This document shows positions 8,351 through 17,607 of a DNA stretch of 64,000 nt, in pieces. The stretch spans positions 28,098 to 92,097 of the forward strand of contig CBDUEV010000003.1 of the NCBI GenBank assembly GCA_965366365.1, read 5' to 3'. The position numbers and the translations under genes were made by a program. Every line of letters begins with the position of its first letter. The stretch's first letter is position 1. A model generated the notes under the pieces. It made no database searches. It saw only the letters and a program-made list of their open reading frames with translations, and was not told the DNA's origin. Source of the stretch: an uncultured Acidimicrobiia bacterium. Lineage in GTDB: Bacteria > Actinomycetota > Acidimicrobiia > Spongiisociales > JAENVV01.

Positions 8351-8459
8351 CTCGATCATCGCCACCGGGGTTGGTCGCCCGGGAGGGCAGACGCCCGGAG
8401 ATCGAGCGGCCTCGACGGCCCGCCCGACCTGGCGTGACGAAACCGCCCTATCGCCGCTC

Positions 8460-9140
8460 TCAGTTGCGACCTGCGATCGACTCCAAAGTCGGTCGGTCGA
8501 CGATGTGCACGCGCCGATAGGCGGTGGCGACGGCCCCCGTTTCGCGCAGAAGCCCCAGCGCCTCGTTGACGGTTTGGCGGCTGGCGCCCAGCAACTCCGC
8601 CATGCCTGCCTGGGATAGATGCACGTCACCTCGCACGTCGCACTCGTCGAGAATCAGCTCCGCGACTTGTTCCCTCACGGTGCGTTGCATGAGGCCGAGA
8701 ACGCGTCGCTGAGTCGACTCGAGCTGCGTCAAACCTGCCACCAGCCAGCGCAGCGTGATCACCGGGCGCTGTACGAGGACCGGCAGCAGCAGATCACGAT
8801 CGAACCTGAAGGCAACGAGTCGCATGGTCGCTCGGGCGGAGAGCTTGTAGGGCTCACCCTGAAACATGGCGATGTCGCCCAACACAGACCCGGTGCCCGC
8901 CCTACCCACCGTTCGCTTGGCCGATCTCGCGCCTCGGTAGAGCTCGACCTGGCCACTCTCGAGAACAAAGGCGGAGCGGGACTCCTCTCCTTCCTTGAAC
9001 AGGTGAGTGCCGGGATACTTCTCGATCACCTCGCCCGTCGAGGCAAGTGCTTCCAGGTCGGACTCCCTGAGCGGAAGGTAGTCGGTGCGTCCAAAGCTGC
9101 GCGCCAACCAGGCGAAATGCCTCCGGTCGCTTTCGTCCAT
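8460..9140 (-). CDS. Crp/Fnr-family transcriptional regulator
   Basis: cNMP-binding domain (LFKEGE...LESGQV...GSVLGD) and HTH (LSQAGMAELLGASRQTVNEAL); GAGGAG RBS before ATG 9140. Confidence 0.9.
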   Translation of the reverse strand: MDESDRRHFAWLARSFGRTDYLPLRESDLEALASTGEVIEKYPGTHLFKEGEESRSAFVLESGQVELYRGARSAKRTVGRAGTGSVLGDIAMFQGEPYKLSARATMRLVAFRFDRDLLLPVLVQRPVITLRWLVAGLTQLESTQRRVLGLMQRTVREQVAELILDECDVRGDVHLSQAGMAELLGASRQTVNEALGLLRETGAVATAYRRVHIVDRPTLESIAGRN

Positions 9141-9241
9141 GGCGGGCTCTCCTCGTTGGACTCGACAACGCCGGCTGGTCCCAAACCCTTCCGACGCGGT
9201 CCGATTCGCCAGCTCCGACACCTCGGGTAGCATGCGCTCCC

Positions 9242-9769
9242 ATGCATCCTCTGAGCGGCCCACTCTTCGTTGCCCTGGTCGTCCTCACCCTTGGCGGGGT
9301 TCTCAAAATCGTCCGACCTGACGACACGGCCAACGCCATGCGAGCGATGGGACTGCCGTCGCACCGGGCTCTCGTCCGGTCGATGGGGGGAGCCGAGGTA
9401 GCTCTCGGCCTCAGCACTCTGGTGTGGGCGATGCCGATCCTGGCCTTTGCGGTCGCCGTGGCATATGTGGCGTTTGCCGGCTTCGTCCTCCTCGCCCTCC
9501 GCAGAGGACTCTCCATCCAGTCCTGCGGCTGTTTCGGTCGGGTCGACACTCCTCCGTCGGCCGCTCACCTGGCCGTCAACCTCTCGGCGGCGGCCACTGC
9601 AGTCGGCTGGGCCGTCACCGCCGACCGTTCGTTCGTGTCCCAACTCGGCGACCATCTGGCGGAGGGCATTCCGTTGTTGGTGTTGAGCCTGGTGGGGGTG
9701 TACCTCGTCTACGTCGCTCTGACCGCCTTCCCCGAGACCATGGCCGAAGTCCGGAGGCGGGCAACGTGA
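9242..9769 (+). CDS. MauE/DoxX-family membrane protein
   Basis: GGVLKI, AEVALG, SCGCFG motif typical of MauE; about 5 TM segments. Confidence 0.8.
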   Translation: MHPLSGPLFVALVVLTLGGVLKIVRPDDTANAMRAMGLPSHRALVRSMGGAEVALGLSTLVWAMPILAFAVAVAYVAFAGFVLLALRRGLSIQSCGCFGRVDTPPSAAHLAVNLSAAATAVGWAVTADRSFVSQLGDHLAEGIPLLVLSLVGVYLVYVALTAFPETMAEVRRRAT

Positions 9770-11145
9770 GCAACTGGCTCGTGCATCGCACGACGGAAAT
9801 CCTCGAGCGCACGGTGAGCAGGCGCAGTTTCCTCACCCGGGTCGCCACAGTCGGATCGGCCCTGGTGGCAGCTCCCCTCACCTACGCGCTCAAGCCGACT
9901 TCCGCCTTTGCGGCGGTCTGTTCCTGCTCAGGCTCCACGTGCAGCTGCAGCGCTCTCTGCTGCGACGGCTACACCGAGTTCTGTTGCACGATTTACGGCT
10001 CCAACACCTGTCCGCCGGGAACCCAGGTAGCCGGCTGGTGGAAGGCGGATGGATCCGGCTTCTGCGACGTCGACGGCGTGCCCAAGCCCCGCTACTACCT
10101 GGACTGCAACGCCAGCTGCAACGGGTGCGGATGCGGTTCCAGCGGGCTGTGCTCCCCTTCGTGCTCCGACGGGAACTGTCAATGCGCGCTCGGCTCGTGT
10201 AACAACCGGAAGACCAACTGCACGCTGTTCCGGTACGGGCAGTGCGGCAACCACATCGAATGCCTTGGTCCCATCGTGTGTCGCGTGGTGACCTGCACGG
10301 CACCCTGGATCTGGGACGACTCGTGCGGCACGACGAGCCGCACCGACAACAACACTCGCTTCCACGACCGTCCGTGCCTTCACGACGCACCCGACTATCC
10401 CGCTCTACCCGGGGTCTTCGCAGCCGGTACCTGGCGCCTCGCCACCGGGACCGGGGCCAGCGACCCTCTCAGCGTCTTCGCCTTTGGTACCCTCGGCGAG
10501 ATACCCGTGACGGGAGACTGGAACGGCGACGGCACCGTGACCCCGGGCGTGGTGCGCAACAGCCGATTCGGGCGGTACAAGGACGGCGTGATGTGGTGGC
10601 GTCTGCGCAACAACGCCGGGTCGGGCGAGCCGGACTATGTCTTCTCCTACGGCAAGCCAGGCGACATCCCCATCGTCGGCGACTGGAACGGCAACGGGAT
10701 CCAGACCCCCGGAGTCATCAGGGGCAATACGTGGTATCTCCGCAACGCCAACAGCACCGGAGCCGCCGACATCACATTCCAATTCGGAGAAGTCGGTGAC
10801 ACCTTCGTCGTCGGCGACTGGAACGGAGACGGAATCGACAACCCGGGCGTGGTGCGCGGAACCACCTGGCTCCTCCGCAATTCGAATTCGGGAGGAGCCT
10901 CGGATCTGAGCTTTGCGTTCGGTGAGCCAGGTGACCAGTTCGTGGTCGGCGACTGGAACGGAGACGGAATCGATGGACCCGGCGTGGTGCGAGGGACCAC
11001 GTGGCTCCTCCGTAACGACCCGAGTGCCGGAGATCCCGACCTCATCATGGACCTGGGAGCCGAAGGCCTGCCTGTCGTGTGGAGCGCCGGCACGCTGGCA
11101 GCAGTTCCCGAACCGGTCGATCCAACCGCACCGAGGCTCGCATGA
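9766..11145 (+). CDS. Tat-exported Cys-rich protein resembling the amine dehydrogenase light chain (MauA-like), fused to FG-GAP/VCBS-like propeller repeats
   Basis: GTG 9766 overlaps the mauE-like stop, GGAGG RBS; SRRSFL Tat motif, AFA cleavage site; 26 Cys; CCDG..CPPGT..WW..YYLDC; four GDWNG(D/N)G repeats. Confidence 0.7.
   Translation: MSNWLVHRTTEILERTVSRRSFLTRVATVGSALVAAPLTYALKPTSAFAAVCSCSGSTCSCSALCCDGYTEFCCTIYGSNTCPPGTQVAGWWKADGSGFCDVDGVPKPRYYLDCNASCNGCGCGSSGLCSPSCSDGNCQCALGSCNNRKTNCTLFRYGQCGNHIECLGPIVCRVVTCTAPWIWDDSCGTTSRTDNNTRFHDRPCLHDAPDYPALPGVFAAGTWRLATGTGASDPLSVFAFGTLGEIPVTGDWNGDGTVTPGVVRNSRFGRYKDGVMWWRLRNNAGSGEPDYVFSYGKPGDIPIVGDWNGNGIQTPGVIRGNTWYLRNANSTGAADITFQFGEVGDTFVVGDWNGDGIDNPGVVRGTTWLLRNSNSGGASDLSFAFGEPGDQFVVGDWNGDGIDGPGVVRGTTWLLRNDPSAGDPDLIMDLGAEGLPVVWSAGTLAAVPEPVDPTAPRLA
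10510..11015 (+). repeat. Intragenic repeats (135-bp/45-aa period for copies 2-4) encoding GDWNGDG propeller blades
   Basis: 29-bp identity between 10810-10838 and 10945-10973; four copies at protein level. Confidence 0.85.
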
Positions 11146-11161
11146 CTGCGGAGCCCGGCCG

Positions 11162-11923
11162 ATGACCGTCGCCCTTCTCGTCATCGAGGCAGTCGTCATT
11201 CTGGTCCTCGGCATCCTGGTGGCAGGCCTTCTCAGAAGCCACGCCGAGATACTCCGCTCACTTCACGACCTCGGTGTCGGCGAGGATGGCGAACGGGTCG
11301 CCGCCCCGGCCCGCCAGACCCCCAACGTCATCCCCGGCGTCCCCGAGCCGCGCCAATCCTCGACCCCGGCATTCGACATCGCCGGAGTGAAGACCGACGG
11401 AGCCGCACGGCGCATCGCGGTCGTCGAGACGGATCACACCACGCTGCTGGCGTTTCTCTCGACCGGCTGCACGACCTGCGCGTCGTTCTGGAAGGCGTTC
11501 AGCGAAACCGATCGTCTCGACCTGCCCGGGGTCGACACCCGCCTCGTGGTGGTCACCAAGAGTCCCGGGGAGGAGTCGGAGTCCCGGCTGCGGGATCTGG
11601 CTCCCCGCCAGTTTCCTCTGGTCATGTCATCGGAGGCATGGAATGACTATCAAGTGCCTGTGTCGCCCTACTTCATCCTCATCGATGGCCGGGCAGGACG
11701 CGTCCTCGGCGAAGGGGCGGCCGCCACCTGGGGACAGGTGAAGCATTTGTTGGCGCAGGCCGTTGCCGACCAGTCGATCGTCACCCGGACCCCCGTTCCC
11801 GGCGTGTCGTCGGGAGCCGACCGTGAAGACCGCATCGACCGCGAGTTGCGCGAGGCCGGAATCGAGCCCGGGCACGCCAGTCTCTATCCGGCCGCCACAC
11901 CCGACGTGGAGAGAGCGGAATGA
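11162..11923 (+). CDS. MauD-like membrane-anchored thioredoxin-fold protein
   Basis: N-terminal TM followed by LLRSHAEILRSL, FLSTGCTTC CxxC, VSPYF cis-Pro loop. Confidence 0.75.
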   Translation: MTVALLVIEAVVILVLGILVAGLLRSHAEILRSLHDLGVGEDGERVAAPARQTPNVIPGVPEPRQSSTPAFDIAGVKTDGAARRIAVVETDHTTLLAFLSTGCTTCASFWKAFSETDRLDLPGVDTRLVVVTKSPGEESESRLRDLAPRQFPLVMSSEAWNDYQVPVSPYFILIDGRAGRVLGEGAAATWGQVKHLLAQAVADQSIVTRTPVPGVSSGADREDRIDRELREAGIEPGHASLYPAATPDVERAE

Positions 11924-12603
11924 ACCTCCCCGTCCTGGTCGGGGTGCTCGTCGGCGTTACGGCGGCCGTCCGGTCGAGTTGGTCACCATGAGGAGAATCG
12001 ATGCTGTCGAGCATCACGCCGCTCGGTGAGCGGACGAGGGACAATCGATGGGGTGCCACCGTCGCCTGGTACGTGGCGGGTTCGGCCCTGGGCGGCCTCA
12101 CCTTTGGTGTGGCGGCAGGGTTGTTGGGAAGTCTCGCCGAGACGCTGTGGTGGCCGACCGAGTTCGCCTTGGGCTTGACCGTGGTGGGGATACTCCTGGT
12201 CGGGTTGGTGTTCGATTTCGGCCTGGTCGGCTCCGTCCCGTCGATCCATCGCCAGGTCAATGAGGACTGGCTCAGTCTCTACCGGAGCTGGGTGTACGGC
12301 GGTGGATTCGGATACCAACTAGGCCTGGGGGTGGTGACGATCGTCCCGACCGCCGCAACCTACGTGGCCTACTCGATGGCGTTCCTGTCCGCTTCGATCC
12401 CAGGAGGCGCCGTCGTCGGCGTGGCCTACGGGTTCGCCCGAGCCCTTCCGATCCTCACGGTACGGCGAGCGGTGGATCCGTCGGGCCTGCGTACCTTCCA
12501 CCGCAGGATGCAGCGGGTCGGGCCGAAGGTCGGCCGGTTGACGAACGCCGGCCTCGCCGCCGGTTTGATCGTCGCCGTCTCCTCCTTGAGTGGGGGGTTC
12601 TGA
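11920..12603 (+). CDS. MauF/DsbD-like membrane protein with an in-frame TGA at codon 24 (candidate selenocysteine, WSP-U-G)
   Basis: ATG 11920 overlaps the upstream stop (ATGA); frame reads MNLPVLVGVLVGVTAAVRSSWSP*GESMLSSITPLGER and continues into ORF 12001..12603 (RQVNEDW, YGGGFGYQLGLG). Confidence 0.7.
11992..12033 (+). promoter_or_regulatory. Candidate bacterial SECIS hairpin(s) directly 3' of the UGA
   Basis: GATGCT-GTCG-AGCATC (12000-12015) and CCGCTC-GGT-GAGCGG (12019-12033); both perfect 6-bp stems with G-initiated loops. Confidence 0.45.
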
Positions 12604-12605
12604 CA

Positions 12606-13076
12606 GTGGCCCAGATCGCCGACCAGCGCGTGAGTGTGGACCTGCCACCCGGATGGGAGGCCGAGTTCATTCGCCGAGCCCCCGATCCGGCTCCCCTTGG
12701 CACCACCACCCCGGAGGAGACCTATGCGGTCCTTCACATCGCCAACTGGCCGATGCCGACCGAGCGAGGCGACTTCGGTTCGGGCGCCGTCGAGGTCATG
12801 CGGAGCGGGGACGTCCTCGTCATCCTGGCCGAGTACGGCCCGGAGAACCTCGGAACCGCCCTTTTCAAACGAGTGGGAGTTCCGTGGCCCCTCGACGCCG
12901 CCGACTTCGACAAGAACCGCCTGCAGCGCCCGCTCCCCGGACAGGGTGGCCTGCAACAGTTCTTCGCCGAATCAGACCGGGCATTCTGCCTCTACGTGGT
13001 GCTCGGCAACCTGGCGGACGCCGATCAACTGGTCGGCACGGTCAACGCCCTCCTCGAAACGGTGGCGATCACATGA
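12606..13076 (+). CDS. Hypothetical protein in the mau-like operon
   Basis: 156-aa ORF, 2 bp after the previous stop, overlapping the next start. Confidence 0.7.
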   Translation: MAQIADQRVSVDLPPGWEAEFIRRAPDPAPLGTTTPEETYAVLHIANWPMPTERGDFGSGAVEVMRSGDVLVILAEYGPENLGTALFKRVGVPWPLDAADFDKNRLQRPLPGQGGLQQFFAESDRAFCLYVVLGNLADADQLVGTVNALLETVAIT

Positions 13077-14086
13077 GGGGATGGCGCACGACCCGAGCTC
13101 TCCGGACCCTGCTGGTCTCGATCCTGCTCGCGGTTGTGGCACTGCCGGCGGCAGGAGCCGCCGAACTCGACATCAACGGCTACTTCGACGATGACAACTC
13201 CTCGGTGCACGAACAGGACATCGATTCGATCGCCGCCGCCGGCATCACCCTCGGATGCAATCCACCCGCCAACACCAATTTCTGTCCGGCCCAGGACGTC
13301 ACCCGAGGCGAGATGGCCGCTTTCCTCCGCAGGGCAAAAGGCCTGCCGTTCGTGACCACCGACTACTTCTGGGACGACAACGGGTCCACATTCGAGGACG
13401 ACATCAACGCCATCGCCGCCGACGGCATCACACAAGGATGCGGAGGGGGGCGCTATTGCGGCTCGGTGCCGATGCGCCGATCGGAGATGGCGGCCATGCT
13501 CGCCAACGCTCTCCGGCTGCCCCAATCGAGCACCGACCACTTCGTCGACGACAACGGCAACCCGCTCGAGGAAGCGATCAACTCCATCGCCGATGCGGGC
13601 GTGACTCTGGGGTGCAACCCTCCCGACAACGACAGGTTCTGCCCGGATCTCACGGTGTCCCGGGCCCAGATGGCGAGCTTTCTGACGAGGGCCTTCGACC
13701 TTCCCGCCGTCTACATCGAAGGCCCCTTGGAGTTCGCCCTGCCGTTCTCCGGCGTCTGCGACTCCCAACAGACCTCCTGCAGTGCCACGATCACGCTTCC
13801 CAGTATCGATGCCTACCTGATCAACGAGGGTTGGTTCTACAAGCCTCCTTTTGCGCCGGGAGAACAGGCTCTCTTCGAGGCCGGCACCACCGATTTTCGG
13901 GCCCGCCTCGACGGCATCGCGATCGATCTGGACTCGGCTCCGACGGAATCGGAGGGGGGGTCGTTCGTGCGACGGTTCACGGGCACCATTCCGCGGCTCT
14001 CCAAGGGCAGTCATGAGGTGACCGGTGAATGGCGCTGGGACGGCACCGTGGTGTACGAAACACGGCTCACCCTGATCATCGACTGA
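13073..14086 (+). CDS. Secreted protein with three S-layer homology (SLH) domains
   Basis: Signal peptide; three F.DD...I..IA..GIT.GC...C....TR.(E/Q)MA.(F/M)L repeats; C-terminal beta-rich domain. Confidence 0.85.
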   Translation: MRGWRTTRALRTLLVSILLAVVALPAAGAAELDINGYFDDDNSSVHEQDIDSIAAAGITLGCNPPANTNFCPAQDVTRGEMAAFLRRAKGLPFVTTDYFWDDNGSTFEDDINAIAADGITQGCGGGRYCGSVPMRRSEMAAMLANALRLPQSSTDHFVDDNGNPLEEAINSIADAGVTLGCNPPDNDRFCPDLTVSRAQMASFLTRAFDLPAVYIEGPLEFALPFSGVCDSQQTSCSATITLPSIDAYLINEGWFYKPPFAPGEQALFEAGTTDFRARLDGIAIDLDSAPTESEGGSFVRRFTGTIPRLSKGSHEVTGEWRWDGTVVYETRLTLIID

Positions 14087-14089
14087 CCG

Positions 14090-14554
14090 ATGAGGGTGCT
14101 GACGGTCTGCCTCGGCAACATCTGTCGGTCGCCCACGGCCGAGGCGGCACTACGCGAAGTCGCCGCCCACCACGGTTTCTCGATCGATCTGGACTCGGCG
14201 GGAACGGCTGACTATCACGTGGGCAAGCCGCCCGATAGACGGATGACCGAGGCGGCGCGCCAGGCCGGCCTCGGCCTGGGCGGTTCGGCCCGCCAGGTCG
14301 AGACCGCCGATTTCCACCGGTTCGACATCATCCTGGCCATGGACCGGTCCAATCTCGCCGACCTGCAGGCCATCGCCCCCAGCCCTGAGCTGGCCGCCAA
14401 GGTGCGCCTCTTCCGATCCTTCGACGCCACGGCGACCGACCTCGACGTCCCGGATCCCTACTACGAAGGCGACGAAGGGTTCCGGGAGGTGGTGGCCATC
14501 TGCCGCCGCGCCGCGGCCGGGTTCGTCGACCGGATGGCGGGCGACGCTCCCTGA
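14090..14554 (+). CDS. Low-molecular-weight protein-tyrosine phosphatase
   Basis: CLGNICRS P-loop, DSAGT, VPDPYY. Confidence 0.95.
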   Translation: MRVLTVCLGNICRSPTAEAALREVAAHHGFSIDLDSAGTADYHVGKPPDRRMTEAARQAGLGLGGSARQVETADFHRFDIILAMDRSNLADLQAIAPSPELAAKVRLFRSFDATATDLDVPDPYYEGDEGFREVVAICRRAAAGFVDRMAGDAP

Positions 14555-14565
14555 GGCCCAGCTGG

Positions 14566-15761
14566 TCAGGCGGTGCGCAACGCTTCCGTGGGACTCATGC
14601 GGGCCGCCCGGATGGCGGGATACAAACCGGCGATCGCTCCGATCACCAAGGCTGCAACGAAGCCGCCCACGATGGCGATCTCCGGTACCAGGGTCGACCA
14701 GCCTTTGTACTGGGCGTAGGCCGTGGTGACCGCAAAGCCAAGCGCCACACCGCCCGCCCCGCCGATTCCGGCCAGCAGGAGGGCTTCCATCAGGAACTGC
14801 AGGGCGACGTGCCGTTTGGTGGCCCCGAGAGCCCGGCGCAATCCGATCTCCGATCGCCGCTCGAGTACCGAAATGACCATGACGTTGGCGATCCCAACCC
14901 CTCCGACGAGGAGCGCAACAGCACCCAATCCGAGAAACAGCGCGGTGAAGGCGTCGTCGGCCGCCTCACGGGCTTCGAGCGCGTCGGAGGGTCTATCGAC
15001 TTCCACCTCTTCTGGGTTTTCCGGGTTGGCCGTCGGAGCCAGAACTCCCATGACGGCGTCCACCGAAGCAGGATCGGTGCGCACATAGATCGAAGATGGC
15101 ACGACCTCTTGATTCAGGAAGTCCTCGGCGACGGCCACTCCGATCAGAGCGGCGCGGTCGAGGTCCGGGCTCAGCTCGAACGGCTCGAGGATCCCGACCA
15201 CCGCGAACCACTCGTCACCCAACCAGACGACGGGACTCGCCTGAAGATCGGTCACCCCCAGACGTTCGGCGGCAACCGAGCCGAGAACGGTGGCCGGATA
15301 GGAGGCTGTCGCCGCGTCGAGCCAGCGTCCGTCCGCCATCGACCCGGACAGGGTGTCGAGCAGACTGAGGTCGGCGGCCTTGACCGTCACTCCTCCGGTT
15401 TGAGTGGCGGGGATGTAGTCGGTCCGATAGACGTTGGCGTCCACCTCGCTGACCGCCGAGGTGGCCTCGACGGGTCCGATCCTGCTGATCATGGCGGCGG
15501 CGTCTTCGGGTAGCTGGCCCGTCCCGAGTCCGATCCCGGTGCCGGCTTGCACGGTGAGCAGGTTGGTGCCGAGGCGATCCAGCTGGGCCAAGAGATCGGA
15601 TTTCGAGGATTCCGACAGTCCCAGGACCGCCACCATCGCCGCGATCCCGATCATGATCCCCAACGCAGACAGGGCGGCCCGAAGCTTTCGTGTGCGAAGC
15701 CCGACCGTGGCCGTGCGGCCGAGATCCGAAGGGTGGATACGACTCGGCCGAAGCTCCGTGG

Positions 15762-15765
<4 letters not shown>
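14566..15765 (-). CDS. MacB/FtsX-type ABC permease
   Basis: GGVGIANVMVISVLERRSEIGLRRALGA, YPAIRAARMSP. Confidence 0.92.
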
Positions 15766-16493
<728 letters not shown>

Positions 16494-16500
16494 CGCTGCC

Positions 16501-17607
16501 CTAGGGGACCACGACGCGATCGCCGGGTTGGAGACCGTCGGCGTCGATTTCGACGAAACCGTCGGCGAAGAACCCGGGATCGACGGCGATGTAGCTGAGC
16601 GTCACGTCGTCGTCGGCGACCTGAACCGCGTATCCGCCTTCGGAGAGAGCTACCAGAGCGGTGACCGGAACCGCCAGGACGTTCTCGACCGAGTCGGCCA
16701 CCACCTCGATCTCGACCGGAGCCTCGTCGAGGTTTCCGGCGACCGACGGATCGTCGAGGCTCACCTCCACTTCCACCGTTGCGGAGCCCTGCGCGTCGGT
16801 GGTGGCGATCGTCCCCACCGAGGTCACTGTCCCTGACGTTTCGGTGTTGTCAGGCAGCACCACGATGACCGAATCTCCTTCTTCCAGCACTCCTTGATCG
16901 GCAGTGGGAAGGTCGATCAGCACGACGATGTCGACGGACGACGTCATCAGCAACTGGCTTCCGCTCTGGAGGGGAGAACCGACTGCGGCGGTGACGTCGG
17001 CGATTCGGACGTCACCGGGAAGGAAGATCACCTCACCCAACTCCACTACGCCGTCGTCCTCCACCCCCAGATCTTCCTGCCACCGCTGCACCATGTCCTC
17101 GGTCAACGTCGTGAATTCTTCGTCGATGGTGACGGTTTCGTCGGGGTCGTACCCGAGGTCGGCCAGTGCCCTTTCAAGCTGCTCGACATCGGGGCCTTCG
17201 TCGACGCCTTCCTCCAGTTGACGCCAGGCCGGCAGGTCACCCGGCAGCAGGACCACCGGGTAATCATCGACACGGTACAGCTCCTGGCCCGCCGTCACGG
17301 TGGCACCCGGGGCGACCGCGGCGGTGAGGGTGCCTGGGGCGCGATTGAGGATGGCGTCGCCGTCCGATCGCCCCAGCGTCCCGTCATAGGTTTCCACCTC
17401 GACGAGGTCTCGGCGGACCACTTCGGCGAAAGACAGCTCGACCTCTGCTTCTGGTTCGACGGGAGCTTCGGCCTCCTGGCTCAGGTACCACCAGCCGACC
17501 GTCGCCGCCGCCACGACGACCAAGAACAGGATCCACGTGCGGCCTCCCCGGCGGGTCGGGGCCGTCGAACGCGTTTCTTCCGTTGCTGCGTGCGATTCAG
17601 TCGTCAT
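16501..17607 (-). CDS. Periplasmic adaptor-like protein with inserted peptidoglycan-binding domain
   Basis: N-terminal TM; GPDVEQLERALADLGY...WQEDLG..DG PG-binding pattern; ENVLAVPVTAL MFP tail. Confidence 0.8.
   Translation of the reverse strand: MTTESHAATEETRSTAPTRRGGRTWILFLVVVAAATVGWWYLSQEAEAPVEPEAEVELSFAEVVRRDLVEVETYDGTLGRSDGDAILNRAPGTLTAAVAPGATVTAGQELYRVDDYPVVLLPGDLPAWRQLEEGVDEGPDVEQLERALADLGYDPDETVTIDEEFTTLTEDMVQRWQEDLGVEDDGVVELGEVIFLPGDVRIADVTAAVGSPLQSGSQLLMTSSVDIVVLIDLPTADQGVLEEGDSVIVVLPDNTETSGTVTSVGTIATTDAQGSATVEVEVSLDDPSVAGNLDEAPVEIEVVADSVENVLAVPVTALVALSEGGYAVQVADDDVTLSYIAVDPGFFADGFVEIDADGLQPGDRVVVP

Follow-up and report, generated by a model that had tools for sequence, protein, structure and literature searches.

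A conserved five-gene cassette with MauE-, MauD- and MauF-like proteins, a very probable selenocysteine codon and a cysteine-rich exported protein in an uncultured Acidimicrobiia bacterium

A stretch of 64,000 nucleotides from an uncultured Acidimicrobiia bacterium (contig CBDUEV010000003.1, positions 28,098 to 92,097, of assembly GCA_965366365.1; hereafter the window) was analysed around positions 8,460 to 14,554. The conserved unit of this locus is a cassette of five genes, which encode a MauE-like membrane protein, an exported protein with a twin-arginine translocation (Tat) leader and 26 cysteines (hereafter the client), a MauD-like thioredoxin-fold protein, a MauF-like membrane protein and a protein of 156 residues. 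The cassette is probably a Mau-type extracytoplasmic thiol-redox maturation system for the client, which would be a wall-associated cysteine-rich protein. An in-frame UGA in the MauF-like gene very probably encodes selenocysteine (Sec) at the position of the invariant cysteine of MauF, and the system very probably uses selenium. The features of the cassette, numbered by their position in the window, were as follows (E, expected value).

9242..9769, plus strand: MauE-like membrane protein (PF07291, E 9.9e-14)
9766..11145, plus strand: Tat-leader cysteine-rich exported protein (4-bp overlap with the MauE-like gene; TIGR01409, 18.1 bits against a cut-off of 16.7)
9766-9912, about 9913-10380 and from there to 11145, plus strand: leader, 26-cysteine domain and FG-GAP-like repeats of the same protein
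11162..11923, plus strand: MauD-like CxxC thioredoxin-fold protein (16-bp gap; TIGR02661, E 7e-5, below cut-off)
11920..12603, plus strand: MauF-like six-segment membrane protein of 227 residues (4-bp overlap; hhalign to MauF)
11989..11991, plus strand: in-frame UGA, read as a Sec codon (residue 24, WSP-U-G)
12000..12015, plus strand: hairpin 1 (GAUGCU, 4-nucleotide loop, AGCAUC; starts 8 nucleotides after the UGA)
12017..12035, plus strand: hairpin 2, the best candidate for a selenocysteine insertion sequence (SECIS; 6-8 bp stem, GGN apical loop)
12606..13076, plus strand: 156-residue accessory protein (2-bp gap; no Pfam or NCBIfam match)

Conservation was examined in the best 80 loci from 583 confirmed relatives in species-representative genomes, and neighbouring genes were searched for by tblastn with eight window proteins against these 80 loci. 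At least 4 kb was present on both sides in 48 of the 80 loci (well-flanked), and five genes within 7 kb were counted as a full set. The five genes were found together in 37 of the 48 well-flanked loci, four of them in 8 and three in 1, and the genes thus co-occur in other genomes. The five-gene arrangement exceeds chance. The first-pass annotation of this DNA had treated the whole locus as one unit, which had to be narrowed to these five genes. The 37 complete sets were arranged in six gene orders. Cassettes with a cysteine codon at the UGA position (Cys-type) mostly had the order thioredoxin, 156-residue protein, MauE, cysteine-rich protein and MauF, and those with TGA (Sec-type) retained a block of thioredoxin, MauF and 156-residue protein. 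Some loci that seemingly lacked MauE carried it in frame with the cysteine-rich gene. The MauE-like and cysteine-rich genes lay in one open frame in loci L018, L031, L083, L085, L086 and L091, and in the database protein P0260 residues 7-112 make up a MauE domain and residues 190-388 the cysteine-rich domain. Of 301 sampled Actinomycetota genomes, 41 had MauF-like matches at E ≤1e-10 (35 of 295 without six unpublished genomes).

The protein search for the MauF-like protein produced 1,654 relatives among 8,000 scored candidates. The closest relatives were 196-202 residues long and began just past the position of the TGA. Remoter relatives of 253-327 residues had an extra N-terminal helix, and their cysteine in R-S-T-W-S-P-C-G was aligned to the UGA of the window. 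Comparison of the family alignment with MauF of Paracoccus versutus by hhalign gave a probability of 98.8% (E 9.6e-17) over 186 columns, with T-W-S-P-C-G of MauF placed on the WSP-U-G columns. A tblastn search of 72,556 plasmid records gave two matches only, both annotated as mauF (Paracoccus; 35.7% identity, E 0.1). On these alignments the membrane protein is a MauF homologue. It had about six hydrophobic segments and reached no model of Pfam or NCBIfam (release 20). DsbD_2 (PF13386) was matched by 4 of 19 family members (best E 7e-7) and not by the window protein.

Counted from an ATG that shares bases with the thioredoxin stop codon, the in-frame TGA comes 23 codons later. The codon in this column was TGA in 52 of the 80 loci (L074, whose motif varies, included) and a cysteine codon, TGC or TGT, in the other 28, and the 23 codons upstream were kept in frame in all 80. 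One TGA was present in 35 of the 42 matches from the 301 Actinomycetota genomes, as counted without inspection of the stop positions (29 of 36 without the six unpublished genomes). The TGA of the window was reproduced with zero differing letters in contigs of three runs (X4, X5 and X6) from another study. Short extra contigs of runs X4 and X7 (records 2 and 8, with five differing letters each) matched the stretch of the UGA and the hairpins alone (window 11975-12035), and they seem to come from related strains with the same conserved RNA element. The Sec machinery was found in the genome with all matches above their cut-offs, namely selA (421.1 bits), selB (331.8 bits), selD (375.5 bits) and tRNA-Sec (79.9 bits), and selB adjoins selA. 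The selD match (G000:C23:34378-35307, locus L003) had one in-frame TGA, and SelD is probably a selenoprotein itself in this genome. In a quick tree with an uncertain root, the Cys forms made two clades (25 and 3 rows, SH-like approximate likelihood ratio test 100) within a background of TGA forms. The UGA is read as Sec because of the full Sec machinery, the split between TGA and cysteine codons among the 80 relatives and the hairpins that are specific to the TGA forms. Together with the aligned cysteine homologues, these raise to very probable the selenium dependence that had at first been proposed as a possibility.

The hairpins were counted in 51 TGA forms and 28 Cys forms, with L074 left out since the motif search missed it. 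The 6-bp stem of hairpin 1 was perfect in 51 of 51 TGA forms compared to 1 of 28 Cys forms, and the serine codon in its 3' arm was AGC in 51 of 51 TGA forms and in 6 of 28 Cys forms. 100% of the cells in the stem of hairpin 1 were paired, and its minimum free energy (MFE) in the window was -8.7 kcal/mol. The 6-bp core of hairpin 2 was perfect in 45 of 51 TGA forms compared to 3 of 28 Cys forms, and its apical loop was GGU, GGG, GGC or GGA in 50 of the 51. The distance from the UGA to the loop was 33 nucleotides, and the MFE was at or below -7.5 kcal/mol in 51 of 52 forms and -10.2 kcal/mol in the window. Compensatory changes, with both partners varying, were seen in five of its eight pairs (pair 30-46, for instance, is CG in 36, UA in 10 and UG in 4), and 94% of the cells were paired compared to 36-48% when the partners were slid. 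The bacterial SECIS model, as given in section 5 of PMC13188914, has a stem of 4-16 bp, a loop of 3-9 nucleotides with a G in its first two nucleotides, a distance of 16-37 nucleotides from the UGA and an MFE of ≤ -7.5 kcal/mol. Hairpin 2 fits this model by its predicted fold. Hairpin 1 was less favoured as the SECIS, with its loop 14 nucleotides from the UGA and often without a G in its first two nucleotides. The 81-nucleotide fold around the UGA had a z-score of -1.14, which is uninformative alone, and an Rfam scan of positions 8400-14700 gave no match at E ≤1.

The MauE-like protein matched PF07291 with 52.2 bits against a gathering cut-off of 27, and it was the only MauE-family match above cut-off in the genome. 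It has two cysteines in total, both in the motif CGCFG, and the motif was present in 46 of 55 reconstructed homologue open reading frames (ORFs). According to the available text of a preprint, MauE homologues substitute for DsbB in E. coli via a CXC site followed by Phe-Gly (10.64898/2026.03.05.709764). The thioredoxin-fold protein reached 22.4 bits with TIGR02661, below the equivalog cut-off of 188.6, and it is therefore labelled MauD-like and not MauD. It aligned with MauD of P. versutus by BLASTP at 27% identity over 108 residues (E 6e-8) in a region that spans the CxxC. The active site is C-T-T-C, and CxxC was present in 69 of 73 homologue ORFs, the four misses being faulty ORF reconstructions. 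The protein has one hydrophobic segment (residues 1-31). Outside the fold, its family (alignment A5) conserves a juxtamembrane L-L-R-S-H-A-E-I-L-R and a C-terminal tail A-G-I-x-P-G-D-P-S-L-Y-P. The earlier naming of mauE-, mauD- and mauF-like genes was borne out by the Pfam, BLASTP and hhalign matches given above. A DsbB-family gene was found elsewhere in the genome (G000:C8:25972-26346, 49.9 bits), so the cassette is regarded as dedicated rather than general. VKOR and Thioredoxin_4 (DsbA-like) gave no match in the genome, which is 96.2% complete.

The 156-residue protein has no signal peptide and no conserved cysteine, and its gene was found by tblastn in 70 of the 80 loci. No consistent Pfam family was obtained for 40 members of the family. 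Its structural model had a predicted local distance difference test (pLDDT) score of 95.2, and the structural matches were Tsi3 (Z 7.2, root-mean-square deviation (rmsd) 3.5, 106 residues aligned), TplEi (Z 6.8), PsbP (Z 6.1), LpqN (Z 6.1) and Mog1 (Z 5.3), with MTC28 also within Z 7.2-5.1. The predicted fold is PsbP/Mog1-like at Z below 8, which by the guidance of the tool is the range of common arrangements. Comparison of the family with MauJ gave a probability of 0.1%, and this identity was rejected. Six single-member database proteins (P0394-P0399) join the 156-residue protein to cysteine-rich, MauF-like or MauE-like products and none joins it to a MauD-like product; they may be real fusions or gene-call artefacts. 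A complex was predicted for the Cys-type MauF-like, MauD-like and 156-residue proteins of another genome (locus L037), with the 156-residue protein as the scored partner. The score was 0.56 compared to 0.00 for the best of three controls, and replacing the MauD-like chain brought it down to 0.00. Agreement between the runs covered at least 57% of the contacts, with a partner pLDDT of at least 75. In calibration, 58 of 80 solved complexes and 2 of 110 mismatched pairs attained the mark; scores of ≤0.60 accounted for only 7 of the 80 and for both of the passing mismatches.

The client has 26 cysteines in about 155-170 N-terminal residues and none in the following residues (about 240). Its C-terminal repeats matched FG-GAP_3 with E 3.3e-4, which is below cut-off, and no Pfam domain covers the cysteine-rich part. 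Searched against 1.84 billion proteins, a profile of the cysteine-rich domain matched 598 representative clusters at E ≤1e-3 (475 at E ≤1e-10). This domain was almost always N-terminal, and the family members were 187-742 residues long. No usable match with the cysteine-rich domain was found in the ESM Atlas. Swapped C-terminal domains had been named at first as something to look for, and a Pfam scan of 78 of the 150 listed family proteins, mostly the longer ones, did find different C-terminal or other domains beside the cysteine-rich part, with some proteins carrying two of them:

LGFP repeats, 31 of the 78 scanned members
CW_binding_2, 6 of the 78
DUF4214, 4 of the 78
FG-GAP, 3 of the 78
SLH, 1 of the 78
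Ricin lectin, 1 of the 78
Tectonin, 1 of the 78
MauE, 1 of the 78
No family, 36 of the 78

Since the scanned members carry wall-binding C-terminal modules, the cysteine-rich domain appears to be typically tethered to the cell wall in relatives. The surface display that had been proposed at first is thus retained through these modules, and its dependence on the neighbouring SLH gene is not.

The reading that these data probably favour is the maturation of the client by the other products of the cassette. The client would lie outside the cell because it has a Tat leader and because its relatives carry wall-binding modules. After export, the MauE-like protein with its CGCFG motif would act as a quinone-linked oxidase of DsbB type that introduces disulfides, and the membrane-tethered MauD-like CxxC thioredoxin would exchange them. 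The membrane-embedded Sec or Cys of the MauF-like protein would be a second redox centre, either as a reductive or isomerising (proofreading) arm or in a selenosulfide relay. The joint outcome would be that about 13 disulfides of the client are formed correctly. The PsbP/Mog1-like protein of 156 residues would serve as a cytoplasmic accessory or adaptor protein, possibly bound to the MauD-like protein.

Several observations weigh against this reading. In the MauD-like protein, as in canonical MauD, positive residues are absent ahead of the helix and several follow it. Under the positive-inside rule, this distribution would give a cytoplasmic thioredoxin domain. A cytoplasmic MauD-like domain is also suggested, weakly, by the predicted contact with the 156-residue protein, which has no signal peptide; this contact depends on the MauD-like chain and comes from a model of proteins from another genome, with a score that is weak by the calibration of the tool. 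The MauD-like thioredoxin domain may therefore lie on either side of the membrane. The direction of MauE is disputed as well, and the same preprint, in its available text, cites a study of MauE as a reductase (10.64898/2026.03.05.709764). For the chemistry, only one invariant Cys/Sec column was found in the MauF-like alignments (A1 and A6), and the protein would therefore not work like CcdA or DsbD, which use a cysteine pair. The disulfides of the client are presumed from its cysteine count alone. Tat export is unusual for a protein with many disulfides, though MauA has the same type of leader. Finally, 2 of the 48 well-flanked loci had the MauF-like gene alone.

One alternative, unlikely as it is, was kept. 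Here the cysteine-rich domain would be a very distant small subunit of MauA/AauA type with a Trp-derived quinone or other cross-linked cofactor, and the client would be a new wall-bound quinoprotein enzyme that the cassette matures, more than a protein stabilised by disulfides. The same three helper families accompany MauA. The leader of the client aligned with the MauA family (27-sequence alignment) with an hhalign probability of 90.8% and E 1.2e-6 over 29 columns. The aligned stretch lies before and around the twin arginines (window 9766-9912; alignment A2 against A4), and the leader of the MauA family is unusually long. In addition, both families share CPPGT followed by a Trp, the relaxed alignment is colinear, and the Trp pair after CPPGT (W79 and W80) was invariant in 25 sequences. 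The structure predicted for the client (pLDDT 70.9) gave top Foldseek rows that were almost all light chains of methylamine dehydrogenase (MADH) or aromatic amine dehydrogenase (AADH). However, these rows had E 0.7-5, and alignment to the light chains with VIA-align gave Z 2.1-2.2 (rmsd 3.5-5.7, 66-78 residues aligned). With the leaders removed, the hhalign probability was 7.6% and CPPGT alone was confidently aligned. The light-chain model PF02975 had no match in 25 members of the family at E ≤10 nor in the genome at E ≤1, and a search of PDB sequences with the cysteine-rich profile found no MADH chain, a pollen allergen at E 1.4 being the only hit. The column of the second invariant Trp of MauA (W165 of A4) is non-Trp here in the relaxed alignment, which is non-significant. 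MauG/CCP (PF03150) had no match in the genome, with a control positive in four genomes, and the MADH heavy chain (PF06433) had none either, which is weak evidence since its control was silent. The absence of a heavy chain and MauG that had been claimed for the locus was thus found for the genome too, as was that of a light chain, with the same limit for the heavy chain. The description of the domain as MauA-like was not upheld, since the leader alone aligns, and homology of the mature cysteine-rich domain to MauA was not shown.

A second alternative is likewise improbable, in which MauF-type proteins would form, next to DsbB/VKOR and DsbD/CcdA, a third class of membrane oxidoreductase for thiols and selenols that works through a single membrane-embedded Sec or Cys. 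A MauD-like protein held on the cytoplasmic side by the 156-residue protein would feed MauF, through which redox equivalents would cross the membrane and reach the client. On the wall, the client would then be a very remote, cofactor-bearing relative of MauA, and its cofactor would be Trp-derived or otherwise cross-linked.

It is quite unlikely that the MauF-like protein transports a metal or a sulfur or selenium species with Sec/Cys as a ligand, and that the client is a metal-binding wall protein. The DsbD_2 matches in 4 of the 19 members, the name 'sulfite exporter TauE/SafE family protein' given to relatives by some databases and the single conserved Cys/Sec would agree with a transporter, as would several membrane transporter selenoproteins in Table 1 and the available text of a 2026 catalogue (PMC13188914). 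However, the gene is constantly linked to those of two proteins of thiol-disulfide type in which CGCFG and CxxC are conserved. Its homologue MauF belongs to the cluster for MADH maturation, and there the client is a disulfide-rich subunit. None of the five proteins matched a metal-binding family. A cluster for ribosomally synthesised and post-translationally modified peptides, as proposed for MauE/MauD clusters of Streptomyces, in which the client would be the precursor of a secreted disulfide-knotted product, is very unlikely. In the available text of PMC7794033, decRiPPter families have mauE (one also mauD) beside predicted precursors with at least 8 cysteines, but the clients here bear a Tat leader and reach 187-742 residues, with wall-binding or repeat domains behind an N-terminal cysteine-rich domain, and the cassette has no conserved gene for a protease, an exporter or leader recognition. 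That the UGA is an ordinary stop and the ATG at 12001 is the true start of the membrane gene (200 residues, no selenium), as gene callers choose, as the starts of the closest database homologues suggest and as the low fold z-score would allow, is hardly credible given the in-frame upstream codons in every locus, the first helix and WSPCG present in the Cys forms and MauF, the hairpins conserved in TGA forms alone, the complete Sec machinery and the two clades of Cys forms inside the TGA background.

Three further genes flank the cassette:

8460..9140, minus strand: Crp/Fnr-type regulator (cNMP_binding, E 5.7e-15; HTH_Crp_2, E 1.9e-11)
13073..14086, plus strand: SLH-repeat surface protein (4-bp overlap with the gene of the 156-residue protein; PF00395, E 1.2e-6)
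14090..14554, plus strand: low-molecular-weight protein tyrosine phosphatase (3-bp gap; LMWPc PF01451, E 9.7e-39, 133.3 bits against a cut-off of 23.2)

The ORF list and a coordinate script confirmed the described layout of seven co-directional genes with junctions of at most 16 bp, divergent from the Crp/Fnr gene across 101 bp. The junctions among the seven plus-strand genes were 4-bp overlaps or gaps of 2, 3 and 16 bp. A scan for promoters and terminators found no promoter-like sites and 4 terminator-like sites compared to 2.8 expected. An SLH homologue adjoins the cassette in 4 of the 80 loci (L013, L024, L033 and L053, the closest relatives), a phosphatase homologue was near it in none, and a Crp homologue was found in one, with a weak match (45 bits) at a distance of about 6 kb. 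All three flanking genes are thus neighbours in this lineage only. The SLH protein has a signal peptide and 8 cysteines. Three SLH-like repeats, as first described, are readable in its translation; Pfam gave one best stretch, and NCBIfam placed the SLH-bearing region in two stretches. A close cysteine pair was seen in each of the three repeats and another in the C-terminal domain, and this protein could also be a disulfide-bonded surface protein. Beyond the phosphatase gene, three convergent genes on the minus strand (window 14566-17607) resemble, from their translations only, an FtsX/MacB-type permease, an ABC ATPase and a periplasmic adaptor-like protein.

Among known systems, the mau cluster of P. 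versutus pTAV3 (L093) also has three co-oriented helper families beside a Tat-leader cysteine-rich protein. The WSPCG of MauF, the CGCF of MauE and the CxxC of MauD are kept in the cassette, and the leader is MauA-like. However, the cassette has no MauG, amicyanin, MauJ or MauM/N and no heavy chain (by a search with a silent control), and its client has no detectable membership in MauA and is usually fused to wall-binding modules. It also differs by Sec in place of Cys in MauF, by the extra gene of the 156-residue protein and by the monoderm-type actinobacterial host. CcdA/DsbD with partners of ResA/CcmG type are similar in having about six segments, a motif of Ser-Pro-Cys type in the first helix and a membrane-tethered thioredoxin partner. 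In CcdA and DsbD, two membrane-embedded cysteines form the redox pair. The MauF-like protein differs from them in its one conserved Cys/Sec, and no link to cytochrome c maturation was seen. The DsbB-DsbA, VKOR and MauE pathways share with the cassette a short cysteine motif followed by Phe-Gly in a membrane protein and a thioredoxin-fold partner. In the MauE pathway as presented in the available text of the preprint, MauE is a generalist, whereas here its gene, together with that of MauF and a fifth one, is part of a client-specific cassette; MauF and selenocysteine each have zero occurrences in that text (10.64898/2026.03.05.709764). TsoB (rhodanese/DsbD fusion-like), YeeE/YedE and SO_0444, as given in Table 1 of PMC13188914, likewise lie in the membrane and carry Sec where a redox or ligand site is presumed, and they too were predicted from Sec/Cys pairs and a downstream hairpin.

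No MauF and no membrane family with a P-U-G-E motif was found in the available text of the 2026 catalogue of 119 families and subfamilies (PMC13188914). Literature searches on MauF with DsbD/CcdA, MauE or MauD, and on selenoproteins with MauE or Acidimicrobiia, gave no description of such a system, and no account of the mechanism of MauF was found in the literature searched. A 2026 preprint on Actinomarina reports, in its available part, deep-Sep candidates matching K07090 in 49 genomes. Since some sources name relatives of the MauF-like protein 'TauE/SafE', these candidates, compared by description only, may belong to the same family.

Overall, the cassette is spread over hundreds of actinobacterial species, and the MauE/MauD/MauF trio appears in it as a portable module with a client other than methylamine dehydrogenase. 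The client family would be a large, unnamed, wall-associated cysteine-rich domain. Gene callers systematically shorten the MauF-like selenoprotein family, which, if the reading of the UGA is true, is a type of membrane selenoprotein missing from the 2026 catalogue. MauF has hitherto been a helper protein without a known activity. The natural exchange of Sec and Cys marks its one invariant cysteine as the likely catalytic redox site, and the Sec/Cys pair makes the role of MauF testable.

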